From NCBI GenBank assembly GCA_964641155.1, contig CAZXJO010000001.1:149144-213143 (forward strand): a DNA stretch of 64,000 nucleotides, given 5' to 3'. This document shows positions 2,065 to 57,850 of the stretch, piece after piece. The stretch is from an uncultured Desulfurococcaceae archaeon. GTDB taxonomy: Archaea; Thermoproteota; Thermoprotei_A; Sulfolobales; NBVN01. The number at the start of each line of letters is the position of its first letter. The first letter of the stretch is position 1. Under the pieces are notes generated by a model that was not told where the DNA came from, did no database searches, and saw only the letters and a list, made by a program, of their open reading frames with translations. The translations under genes were made by a program, and so were the position numbers.

Positions 2065-2900
2065 ATACTACGTCGATAGAGCGTTGAGTATATGTCAAGT
2101 AGTGTCTCAACTTCCAGTTGGTAAACCCTCCTACTCCCAACTAAGCTGTCCAATATGGCGAGGTGCTCAGCGCTCACACCCCCATCAATACAGCCCCTCA
2201 AAACTTTCCTAGCCATCTTTCTCCTTTGATTGAACAAACACCTCACTAAGTCCTCATACCCCCTCCAACAATCACTCCAATTCCTATACCTATTTAAAAC
2301 GACTACCATAGAATCTACCTTGGGCTTTGGTACGAATGAGGTTGGAGGGTAGAGACCCCCTAATTCCACCTTCATGAACGTGTTAACCATAACTGTTAGC
2401 CTACTATAACCTCTATCACCTGGTGACGCTGCAAGCCGCTCAGCAACCTCCTTCTGAAGCGTTAACACTGCAGCTCTGCAATTAGACTTGATCACGGAGT
2501 CTATCAACGGACCGGTTATACCGTATGGAACGTTAGAAACTACGGTGTCTACACTTCTTAAACCAGACCGAAGTAGTAGAACCCCGTCCCCCACCACTAA
2601 ATCAACAGCGTTACCAACCTCTTCGTAGATGAAGTCCTTAGCGACAGTGGCTAATCTACCATCCAACTCTACAGTTGCCACGTACTTGACTATATCGCCT
2701 AGGCTTGCAGTAAGCAAGCCTAAGCCTGTACCAATCTCTATTACGTTGACTGGTTTCAACCTAGCGACATGCCCCAAAACCTCATCCAACAACTTATCGT
2801 CGACTATAAAATGCTGACTTAACTTCTTCCTAGCCTTAATACCATATGACTTTAGTAAGCGCTTCGTAACCTTTCCTAGGTCTTGATAACGCTTTCCCAT
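2061..2900 (-). CDS. rsmA: 16S rRNA (adenine-N6,N6)-dimethyltransferase KsgA/Dim1
   Basis: KKLSQHFIVD N-terminal motif, SAM-binding VIEIGTGLGLLT and NVPYGIT motif. I place the start at the internal ATG at 2900 (MGKRYQ..), because the 33-aa upstream extension of the ORF lies inside repeat copy A. Confidence 0.85.
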   Translation of the reverse strand: MGKRYQDLGKVTKRLLKSYGIKARKKLSQHFIVDDKLLDEVLGHVARLKPVNVIEIGTGLGLLTASLGDIVKYVATVELDGRLATVAKDFIYEEVGNAVDLVVGDGVLLLRSGLRSVDTVVSNVPYGITGPLIDSVIKSNCRAAVLTLQKEVAERLAASPGDRGYSRLTVMVNTFMKVELGGLYPPTSFVPKPKVDSMVVVLNRYRNWSDCWRGYEDLVRCLFNQRRKMARKVLRGCIDGGVSAEHLAILDSLVGSRRVYQLEVETLLDIYSTLYRRSI

Positions 2901-2912
2901 GACGGATAACCT

Positions 2913-3200
2913 TTCTGGTTTTGCGTTAACTTTCACCTCTCCCATCCCCCATTTCATGGGAGGACCTCCACCGTGAAGGGGTGAAGCCCCCACATCCATC
3001 GAGTACTTTCGTGGAAGGTTTTCACCGCTGTCACATCCCCACTCCTCCTAAGCCATATTTCGAACATCCCATATGCTCATACCTCTTCGGGCTTACCCCA
3101 CCAAGCATGCCGGCATAGGTGTGAGGTACCTTCAAAATCAATCATCGGCTATGGTAGTAAATAAACTTTACATTACACGGAAACAACTTACTAACTCCCG
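2913..3200 (-). repeat. Copy A of a 4-member intergenic structured element (putative ncRNA or structured leader)
   Basis: Shares conserved end blocks with 13970-14180, 50181-50370 and 57683-57850. On the minus strand it reads GTAAAGTTTATTTAC (BRE/TATA-like, about 3157-3171) .. GAAGGTACCTCAC .. CACGGTGGAGGTCCTCCCATGAAATGGGGG .. GTGAAAGTTAACGCAAAACCAGAA. Confidence 0.6.
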
Positions 3201-3309
3201 GGTCAGGGAATGAAGGTCTCAGCTCCTTAACCCGTTGACCGCCTCTTATCTATGGTTAGGGTGTCACCAAGTTTATTAGTTTAATAAGGTTTTATATCCT
3301 TGATAAAGG

Positions 3310-3969
3310 TTGAGCGTTGAAGACAGAGTCCTGAATTACTTAAGGGCTAATCCTGGGGCTACACCTAGGGAGGTCGCCGATGCGTTAGGTATGAGCCTGG
3401 CATCAGTTAGGGTAGCGATCGGCAGGCTCAGGGAGTTAGGGCAGGTTATCAGGAGTAGTAGAGGTGGTTACGTAGTCAGAGTAGCTGAAAGCCCTGTGGC
3501 TACCTATGATTACGCACATGCTACCACCACCAGCACCATCGGCGACAACCTGCTGAAGACCGTCAACGAGTTGGTCAGTAAGGTCAGTGAGTTAGAAAGT
3601 AGGATTAGTAAGTTGGAAGATGAAGTGAAAGTTATTAAGAAGTCACTGCCTAAAATACCTTCAAGGCCGCCCAGCAAAGACCTAGATAAGTTTCTGTCAA
3701 CCCTTAGGTTGAGGCATGTTATGAGTGTTGATGAGGCTAAAGGGCTGGTCGATAGACCGTTGGAGGACTACGTAAACGGGGGGAAAGCAGTCATAGTGGG
3801 AGATCTTGTAGTTTCTCCTGAGTTCCTTGACTCGTTTAAGTCTAAGTTCCCCATCAAGGTGTCAAGTATTAGCACTCTAAGCAGTGAGGAGGCAAAGCTT
3901 CTGGAGGCATTGGTTAAGACCAATCAAGCCTACCTTTTCTCAGGCGTTGAGTACAGGATCCTGCGTTAA
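3310..3969 (+). CDS. winged-helix DNA-binding protein with coiled-coil linker
   Basis: The N-terminus LNYLRANPGATPREVADALGMSLASVRVAIGRLRELGQV is wHTH-like, followed by a heptad segment LVSKVSELESRISKLEDEVKVIKK. TTG start; a TATA-like GTTTTATATCC lies upstream. Confidence 0.5.
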   Translation: MSVEDRVLNYLRANPGATPREVADALGMSLASVRVAIGRLRELGQVIRSSRGGYVVRVAESPVATYDYAHATTTSTIGDNLLKTVNELVSKVSELESRISKLEDEVKVIKKSLPKIPSRPPSKDLDKFLSTLRLRHVMSVDEAKGLVDRPLEDYVNGGKAVIVGDLVVSPEFLDSFKSKFPIKVSSISTLSSEEAKLLEALVKTNQAYLFSGVEYRILR

Positions 3970-13679: not shown

Positions 13680-13928
13680 CTACCTCAAATGCGTCGACAA
13701 CGAAACTATTTTAACATCTTCCCTTGCAGTTGACACTGTTATGAAGCCCCTGATTTCCAGAATCATTAAGTACTTGAGGAAGTCAGAATAGGTTATCTCA
13801 TATCTCTTCCTAAGCACGTCATACAGGTCTTTGTCTTTTACGGTTCCACCTCCATCACCTAAAGCCTCAAGTATCTCCGCCATTACGTTGGATGGAAGTG
13901 GGTTTACCTGACGCATATTTATCCACAC
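13680..13928 (-). CDS. small hypothetical protein (possible winged-helix fold)
   Basis: 82-aa ORF immediately downstream (same strand) of repeat copy B. The start is ambiguous: GTG 13928, ATG 13916 or ATG 13883. Confidence 0.35.
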   Translation of the reverse strand: MWINMRQVNPLPSNVMAEILEALGDGGGTVKDKDLYDVLRKRYEITYSDFLKYLMILEIRGFITVSTAREDVKIVSLSTHLR

Positions 13929-13969
13929 CCCCTAACACTTTTAACCTTACCCATAGTCACCAACAACCG

Positions 13970-14180
13970 TTCTGGTTTAGCTAGCTTTCATCCCTCCGTT
14001 TCATGGGAGGGCTTCCGCCGTGAATGGGTGGGGACGGCGCATTCATCCGGTACTTACCCACCCGAACCCATTCGGGCTTAGTCCCCACATACCGGACACA
14101 GATGTGAGGTACCCTCAAATCGATCATCAGTTACTGCGGTAAATAAGCTTTACACCATTACGGAAACGACTTCACTACCC
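13970..14180 (-). repeat. Copy B (most compact) of the 4-member intergenic structured element
   Basis: The minus strand reads GTAAAGCTTATTTACC (BRE/TATA-like) .. GAGGGTACCTCAC .. CCGGTA[..GCCCGAA-TGGG-TTCGGG..]TACCGG .. CCCTCC-CATGAAAC-GGAGGG-ATGAAAGC..AAACCAGAA. Nested hairpins can be seen directly. Confidence 0.65.
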
Positions 14181-14273
14181 TTACCTAACATCGAGGACTA
14201 ATTGACGTAGCCCGCTCAGAACTCCGTAAATCACGTTAAGGATATTTCCTTAATCTTACCGGCCGGTCAGCTC

Positions 14274-50152: not shown

Positions 50153-50180
50153 CATACCGCAACAGCAATGCAACGTCCCG

Positions 50181-50370
50181 TTCTGGTTTGGCGTTAACTT
50201 TCATCCCTCCCCTCCTCGTCTCATGGGAAGGCCTCCCCGAGAACTCATGAAGCCCACACCCAGACCTAACCCCCCCACATACAGGACACAGCCATGAGGC
50301 ACATCCAAGAACAAACACCACGACAGCAAACAAACTCCACACAACACAGAAACAACCCCATAACCCCAAT
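50181..50370 (-). repeat. Copy C (decayed) of the 4-member intergenic element
   Basis: TTCTGGTTTGGCGTTAACTTTCATCCCTCC..TCTCATGGGAAGGCCTCC aligns with copies A and B. The distal half is recognisable but drifted (AAACAAACTCCACACAACACAGAAACAAC against AAATAAGCTTTACACCATTACGGAAACGAC), which destroys the TATA-like box. Confidence 0.5.
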
Positions 50371-54097: not shown

Positions 54098-54420
54098 CTT
54101 ACCGGCTAGTCAGCCCTAAACCCTTGCCACTTTCAATTAAAATCAACATAGTTTAAACCATAGACTTCAGTGTTAAATGGTTTGAGCCGTTGCTATGTCC
54201 CCAGGGTTCATGAATATGTGTTATGAAGCTACTCTACTTCTGTGTGGAGTGTAAGGAGACAGTATGTGGTTTAAGATAGGGGCATAGTAGCCGTTAAAAC
54301 CCTTCAGCTGGACAGAAGCACCGTCTTCGATCCTCCGCGACGGAAGTCCCACGGAATAGGAAGGAAGGAGTGGAAGTCAACGATAGAATGGAACGAATGC
54401 GGTACGCTTAAGCTATCGGC

Positions 54421-57639: not shown

Positions 57640-57682
57640 ACCCGTCATAAAGCCCTAACCCAAAGACCGCTCTGATCTAGCA

Positions 57683-57850
57683 TTGTTTTCACTTCTTCCA
57701 TCCCCATTTCATGGGAAGCCCACCATGAACTGGTGAAGGTGCACATCTCTACTAATACTCACCCGACACACCCATACGCGTTCGGGATTAGCTCCCCGGT
57801 TGGCGGAGCCTGCTTGGAGGGTTTATTAGGACATAATCAGACATTACCCT
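57683..57850 (-). repeat. Copy D (diverged) of the 4-member intergenic element
   Basis: TTGTTTTCACTTCTTCCATCCCCATTTCATGGGAAGCCCACCATGAACTGGTG aligns to the proximal block of copies A-C. CACCCGACA..CGTTCGGGATTAGCTCCCC aligns to the CCCGAA/TTCGGG hairpin of copy B. Confidence 0.45.

Follow-up and report, generated by a model that had tools for sequence, protein, structure and literature searches.

Upstream of ksgA, the 16S rRNA adenine dimethylase gene of an uncultured Desulfurococcaceae archaeon, lies a stretch of about 290 nt that its sequence identifies as a miniature element of the IS607 family. We denote it copy A (positions 2910-3199, minus strand, of the 64,000-nt stretch of DNA analysed here, hereafter the window). 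The element sits between ksgA and the ancestral TATA box of the gene, and we consider it likely that it has given ksgA a promoter and a structured leader. An earlier note on this DNA had offered two readings of the region, a cis-regulatory leader resembling a riboswitch or attenuator, or a mobile cassette that donates a promoter. The second reading holds for the identity of the element, which is an IS607-derived miniature whose box matches the TATA box of the transposase gene tnpA in both sequence and position; its functional part, promoter donation, appears plausible.

A dispersed family of IS607-derived miniatures

Copy A belongs to a family with about 40 loci in the 1.39-Mb genome assembly (11 contigs, 91% complete), which we collected by BLAST and two rounds of nhmmer with E values down to 1e-57; the match of copy A to the family HMM is C1:152049-152340, with an E value of 1.6e-57. 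Twenty-five of these loci are full-length copies, and the remaining ones are 5'-only or 3'-only fragments. Copy lengths range from 165 to 292 nt, with classes at about 165 and about 215 nt, and copy A (292 nt) is the longest. We took its left boundary from the logo of the family's left junctions, and its right boundary from the family alignment and the right ends of full-length relatives; between the two ends there is no intact open reading frame. The window also contains a further full-length copy at 50178-50366 (minus strand; nhmmer C1:199321-199509, E 2.8e-29) and copies retaining only the 3' part at 57664-57797 (minus strand; C1:206807-206940, E 9.5e-21) and 54308-54395 (plus strand; C1:203451-203538, E 3.3e-10). 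The flanks of the family members are unrelated beyond the element, and we saw no target-site duplication in them. The downstream neighbouring gene is co-directional with the family copy at 24 loci and convergent at 16.

Within the 165-nt class, about nine copies differ very little from each other and carry a weak left-end box (GAGGTTTGTTTACT, about 3 bits on the promoter matrix described below). Their near-identity points to recent mobility or a burst of transposition, for which no matching full-length element has been assembled. This sub-family includes the copies at C1:102130, C1:123564, C1:61781, C1:67266, C3:128904, C3:154037, C3:194175 and C3:195426, among others.

The family is patchily distributed. 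Three different queries were used for BLAST, and it turned up in 3 of 41 relatives, in 2 of the 52 genomes at the family level and in 7 of 325 at the order level, all counts that include the present genome; among the same-genus genomes it was found by BLAST in one of four (G002, as a single partial copy). This G002 copy (L222, region C9:85807-85886) is a longer remnant of the family, which aligns by tblastn to TnpB residues 276-343 with an E value of 1e-4. A metagenome scan with the left-end pattern returned 120 chance matches, none of which fits the family HMM.

The origin of the family was traced through full-length relatives in other genomes. In G006, a 194-aa protein with HTH_17 and Resolvase domains is followed directly by a protein with OrfB_IS605 and Cas12f1-like-TNB domains (Pfam), and this gene pair is the tnpA and tnpB of an IS607 element. 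Searching 151 genomes of the order at the protein level recovered three more close complete elements (in G035, G154 and G043), with TnpB identities of 71-80%, and all four encode an HTH_17+Resolvase TnpA and an OrfB_IS605+TNB TnpB. In these four only, the family HMM recognises the 3' coding part of tnpB, with E values from 1.8e-9 to 8e-7. The reciprocal comparison gave the same picture: an HMM trained solely on the 3'-terminal 262 nt of the four full-length elements, and thus independent of the family (the IS-only HMM), aligns in a single piece to copy A, its positions 16-213 covering 3128-2926 with an E value of 3.9e-8 in a small sequence set and 2.6e-5 genome-wide. We therefore read the stretch 2926-3128 (minus strand) as what decay has left of the final ~200 nt of tnpB, the part coding for the Zn-ribbon and RuvC-III. 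Decay has gone far, as copy A is only about 52-54% identical to the full-length 3' ends.

In all four full-length relatives the tnpB stop codon is immediately followed by (T/C)CAGAACGG, and the family terminus, ...ACCAGAACGG, is the same as this right end, giving the family an IS607-type right end of the form ...CCAGAA(C/A)GG. The terminus of copy A, assigned from the right ends of the full-length relatives, is CCAGAAAGG (2910-2918, minus strand; family consensus CCAGAACGG), the final GG being the core dinucleotide. At the other end, the left junction reads W-G-R-G-G-Y-TATGAAG; the junction logo, W(21/31)-G(25)-R(28)-G(24)-G(26), becomes random further out, and within it the TAM and the element boundary are inseparable by sequence alone. 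For an IS607-family element of Clostridium botulinum, a strict GG core dinucleotide, a 5'-TGGG-3' target or TAM, and an omega-RNA scaffold ending in ...UCGG have been described (PMC10690162), and the ends of the present family fit this pattern of TGGG target and GG core.

Copy A retains a left end of about 55 nt, which includes the putative transposase promoter. This part has motifs in common with the full-length relatives, namely GGGG..CTGTTTC and, some 20 nt later, a TATA box. Local alignment of the left ends to those of the full-length relatives was not significant, the fraction of background alignments reaching the observed score being 0.02-0.8, so homology of the left ends is putative and drawn from position. 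We also considered a classical MITE with terminal inverted repeats and target-site duplications, and rejected it: on the left side, the inverted similarity that links GCTGTTTC.. with ..GAACGG has a subterminal position, and there is no flanking duplication. The family has no long terminal inverted repeats. The homologies of interior and right end mark the family as miniatures without protein genes that descend from an insertion sequence of the IS607 family, one that carries a serine-recombinase tnpA and a tnpB.

Copy B, at 13967-14182 (minus strand), belongs to the same family. The two copies are 73% identical by alignment column, with a gap of about 62 columns in copy B, and they are true homologues, as the earlier note had held: their similarity is far above chance, and family matches reach E values of 1e-57. 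The note had also described a ~90-nt insertion in copy A relative to copy B. The length difference is there, but its direction is reversed. The IS-only HMM runs continuously through copy A and is split in copy B into two pieces (16-67 and 165-214), which indicates that the extra block of copy A is ancestral tnpB sequence and that copy B has lost about 97 nt of the tnpB remnant. The block lost by copy B and by most other copies corresponds to the second CxxC and the RuvC-III region. A vestige of the motif ..YTSxxCPxCGxxLSPNG.. of TnpB survives in copy B, where it reads TSHLCPVCG (E values of 0.002 by tblastn and 4e-8 by blastn).

The insertion upstream of ksgA

The ksgA gene occupies 2061-2900 on the minus strand and encodes 279 aa (Pfam RrnaAD, E 4.2e-42), with ATG 2900 as its true start; the orthologue in the sister species G003 begins at the equivalent codon. 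In the open reading frame track the ksgA frame runs from 2061 to 2999, and its 33 additional codons lie entirely within copy A. These coordinates confirm that the N-terminal extension is an artefact encoded by the element, as had been suspected. A search of the genome contigs for loci related to KsgA gave no confirmed match. The upstream neighbour, a gene for a wHTH/MarR-like protein (3310-3969, plus strand), is divergent from ksgA; operon read-through into ksgA is therefore excluded, and the ksgA promoter must fall within 2900-3310.

Copy A fills most of this interval. Its right end lies 9 nt ahead of the ksgA ATG, and its conserved 3' block (...GTGAAAGTTAACGCAAAACCAGAA) ends at 2913, 12 nt ahead of ATG 2900, as previously noted. 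Comparing orthologous ksgA upstream regions, a check the earlier note had suggested, was informative. The site is empty in G003, where the flanking genes are syntenic: the alignments of the divergent gene and of ksgA end 42 nt apart there, versus 365 nt in our genome. The G003 sequence upstream of ksgA is ..ACAATTTAAGATATGGGTAAAGTGG|TCACCGTCTATGG, with a TATA-like site that begins 34 nt before the ATG. In the present genome GGTTATCCGTCATGG, which is homologous to the G003 ksgA upstream sequence, directly adjoins the terminal GG of the element, a junction which indicates that copy A entered ksgA's upstream region at a GG lying downstream of the TATA box and ahead of the start codon.

The homologue of the G003 ksgA TATA box (CAATTTAAGATATGG) is found here at 3243-3262 (minus strand), where it reads CCATAGATAAGAGG and has ceased to rank as a promoter. 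This loss would fit decay of the box after the insertion had displaced it from ksgA. In two other species of the genus, G004 and G001, the ksgA intergenic site is filled by something else: the spacers (L028 in G004:C5 and L027 in G001:C11) are about 330-490 nt long, AT-rich and unrelated to copy A.

To score promoters we trained a BRE/TATA matrix on 260 upstream regions of this genome (consensus AAAGTTTATAAACT). Real promoters have a median score of 7.9 bits on this matrix, and random 70-mers have their 99th percentile at 10.7 bits. The left end of copy A contains a BRE/TATA-like box, GTAAAGTTTATTTAC (3156-3171, minus strand), which the earlier note had placed correctly at 3171 to 3157 and which scores 12.3 bits, above the random 99th percentile. 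By position, this box is the counterpart of the tnpA promoter of the parent insertion sequence: the full-length relatives have ATATTTAAATAC or ACATTTATATAC at the same place ahead of tnpA, and miniature copies in other genomes have GTAAAGTTTTATTGAC or ATAAAGTTCATTAAC, the box GTAAAGTT(T)ATT being present in those of G011 and G255. Archaeal promoters obey a spacing rule from the BRE/TATA box to the transcription start. This rule, together with the median position of matrix sites relative to start codons, would put the start of the copy A RNA at 3130-3140 (minus strand).

On the minus strand between the copy A box and the ksgA ATG, the matrix scan found no further site above 4 bits. The sites at 3268-3299 score best in plus-strand orientation and, as in G003, are those of the divergent gene. 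The copy A box is thus the sole promoter-like site left for ksgA, which makes promoter donation likely. The best-supported reading of these sequences is that ksgA is probably transcribed from the element's own promoter.

The following course of events would account for these observations. Copy A is very probably a non-autonomous, protein-less deletion derivative (a MITE or PATE-like element) of an IS607-family insertion sequence; it inserted into a GG dinucleotide that precedes the ksgA start codon by 9 nt, between the gene and its ancestral TATA box. Its BRE/TATA box would start an RNA near 3130-3140 that runs through the scaffold remnant and, encountering no oligo-T terminator, continues into ksgA. 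The gene would now be expressed with a structured leader of about 230 nt that comes from the transposon, and its structure is a legacy of the transposon and no sensor specific to ksgA.

It is possible, if unlikely, that the same miniature IS607 element is neutral for ksgA. The gene would then be served by a weak and non-canonical promoter in the right end of the element (GAAAGTTAACGC) or by the decayed ancestral promoter, and the copy A box would yield only a short separate RNA. The position of GAAAGTTAACGC, about 25-30 nt before the ATG, is the distance expected for a leaderless transcript. Left-end boxes are moreover weak in most of the family: a strong box is present in only 3 of the 31 copies that bear a left end (copy A with 12.3 bits, copy B with 11.9 and C2:229934 with 12.1), most others scoring about 3 bits. 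A strong promoter is therefore not something that the family shares as a whole. Against neutrality, matrix scores near the right end of copy A do not exceed 1.7 bits, the sites above 4 bits do not include the ancestral TATA position (CCATAGATAAGAGG), and no terminator-like run of at least five T residues separates the predicted start at about 3130-3140 from ksgA. One of the strongly boxed copies, C2:229934, was tried as a second case of promoter capture and rejected, as its own TATA-like TTTACATA lies between the copy and the likely start codon about 52 nt downstream.

Since the insertion parts ksgA from its ancestral TATA box, it could also have silenced the gene, leaving it unexpressed or on its way to becoming a pseudogene. 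We regard this as very unlikely: the open reading frame is intact, with 279 aa and a strong RrnaAD match, and it is still open next to a copy A that is old and decayed.

At copy B the situation is different. The earlier note considered the two copies to be arranged in the same way, and copy B does lie upstream of a small open reading frame; functionally the two differ, because a promoter-like site of 7.9 bits (13949-13936) intervenes between copy B and this frame, 33 nt before ATG 13916. With such a site located after copy B, the small frame does not need the element. This 74-aa frame (region 13883-13949, minus strand) has no Pfam match, and its start is probably ATG 13916, or 13883, rather than GTG 13928.

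Predicted RNA of copy A and potential partners

In full-length elements, the stretch corresponding to the tnpB remnant of copy A serves as template for the omega-RNA scaffold. By homology, copy A has the organization of such a template: its stretch 3128-2926 aligns collinearly with the final ~200 nt of tnpB, and the right end comes next. RNAalifold applied to the four full-length 3' ends together with three miniatures predicted 3 helices comprising 26 pairs, 6 of them with compensatory changes, and many of the predicted G.U pairs are valid only on the tnpB-sense strand, in seven sequences from a region that is partly coding. The predicted fold agrees with an omega-RNA scaffold, within a set of seven sequences in which it partially overlaps with coding constraints. 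We were not able to obtain a consensus structure with RNAalifold from the 25-copy alignment of the miniatures or from its 3' block, and copy A lacks the terminal hairpin that full-length elements have before CAGAACGG.

According to the TnpB model, the flank of the right end acts as the guide (PMC10690162, PMC10055086). The flank that follows the right end of copy A, defined by its position, is TTATCCGTCATGGGAAAGCG (2890-2909, minus strand) and covers the ksgA start codon; by analogy it would be the guide part of an omega-RNA made from copy A. The RNA leading into ksgA, if processed, would thus also be an omega-RNA, its guide being the first ~20 nt of the flank.

The 91%-complete assembly was searched for the protein partners of such an RNA. 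We did not find a full-length parent element in it, nor any similarity to the family around the resident tnpB and tnpA loci; the 5'-only and 3'-only family fragments have no adjoining transposase genes, and there are no extra CAGAACGG ends beside tnpB in the genome. Blastx of the miniatures against the resident TnpBs gave only short, non-significant matches. A cognate TnpB was likewise not found in the assembly: none of the resident TnpBs exceeds 35% identity to the parent lineage, and the flanks of the best one (C6:6644-7993) show no DNA similarity to the family. The one TnpA(Ser) homologue, at C8:34230-34805, is 58% identical to the G006 TnpA; its element is cut by the contig end, and its flanks have no similarity to the family. 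As the parent and a cognate TnpB are both absent from the assembly, omega-RNA activity may be vestigial, or the parent may be unassembled.

Two resident loci deserve mention. At C6:7960-7995, the last ~30 nt of an intact 449-aa tnpB (GGGTTCTGGGGTTTGTGTTGTGTTTAG) resemble the 5' end of the miniatures (GGGGTTATGGGGTTGTTTCTGTGTTGTGTGG), which could reflect a left-end-like sequence abutting the element or two elements in tandem. At C8:34011-36045, the resident IS607-like element that is cut by the contig end has TnpA(Ser) and the N-terminal ~240 aa of TnpB in one frame of 541-546 aa, with the rest of tnpB in another frame; the joint frame may stem from a fusion, from a frameshift or from misassembly.

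Other kinds of RNA were also considered. GATGA-like motifs, GA-rich loops and a TATA-like box of its own would suit a free-standing multi-copy small RNA family of the kink-turn or C/D type, unrelated to transposons. This reading is extremely improbable, and we rejected the C/D-box or kink-turn candidate drawn from the GATGA motifs: the D box is absent, there is no Rfam match, the ends are of IS607 type, and the interior comes from tnpB, being collinear with its 3' coding part in elements that pair tnpA(Ser) with tnpB. We give virtually no credence to the cis-regulatory leader proposed in the earlier note, a dedicated riboswitch or attenuator for ksgA and for the frame after copy B, in spite of the conserved hairpins and of the position of copy A directly upstream of ksgA in the same sense, given that the element is a dispersed repeat of about 40 copies in both orientations (24 and 16, the latter pointing at the 3' end of their neighbour), does not occur at the orthologous site in G003, has an interior homologous to tnpB coding sequence, precedes in copy B a frame with a promoter-like site of its own, and has no Rfam match (at gathering thresholds the whole window yields two tRNAs only, and at E-value thresholds the region 2800-3400 yields chance matches).

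Relation to known elements and significance

Insertion sequences and MITEs that donate promoters, either outward-reading or hybrid, are well known, the Correia elements of Neisseria being an example. Copy A resembles them in lying between a gene and its old promoter, with a promoter of its own facing the gene. It differs from them in that its promoter is an archaeal BRE/TATA box and that the putative donated leader is the remnant of a guide-RNA scaffold.

Among characterized elements, the family shares with the IS607 insertion sequence of Clostridium botulinum (IStron/IS607; PMC10690162) an interior homologous to the tnpB 3' end, a right end in ...CGG with a GG core, a W-G-R-G-G left junction akin to the TGGG target or TAM, and the lack of target-site duplications and long terminal inverted repeats; unlike it, the family is gene-less, archaeal and only 165-292 nt long, and has no group I intron. 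Compared with its own full-length relatives, copy A is without the terminal hairpin, and its genome assembly is without the parent and the cognate TnpB. The family is also similar to the PATE-like IS200/IS605 elements of Geobacillus stearothermophilus (PMC10055086), which are protein-less, preserve the transposon ends as well as the template of the guide RNA, reach high copy numbers within a genome and need TnpA and TnpB in trans. Those elements are moved by a Y1 (HUH) transposase through single-stranded hairpin ends, whereas the present family has serine-recombinase (IS607) ends; PATE-like elements encode omega-RNAs only, while the omega-RNA of our family is a prediction from sequence.

Copy A is thus an ordinary kind of element in an instructive position. 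Its identification removes a false lead, as the ksgA leader is not a new riboswitch or RNA class, and the family accounts for both the spurious 33-codon extension of ksgA and about 40 unannotated repeats. Structured 'intergenic RNAs' in metagenome-assembled genomes of hot-spring archaea should accordingly be checked against tnpB 3' ends first. The approximately 25 full-length copies represent natural deletion variants of an archaeal TnpB guide-RNA region, and could define a minimal scaffold if the cognate TnpB is recovered.

The locus provides a natural example of an archaeal IS607 miniature that has split a housekeeping gene from its promoter and has probably replaced that promoter. A bolder proposal, which we consider unlikely, is that ksgA, an essential-type gene of ribosome biogenesis, has co-opted the promoter and guide-RNA scaffold of the transposon, which would now serve it as sole promoter and 5' leader. 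If this were true, ksgA expression would be coupled to the transposon, and binding or processing by TnpB would cut off the leader or block the message; this archaeon would then offer a naturally occurring instance in which an omega-RNA/TnpB module governs a housekeeping gene.
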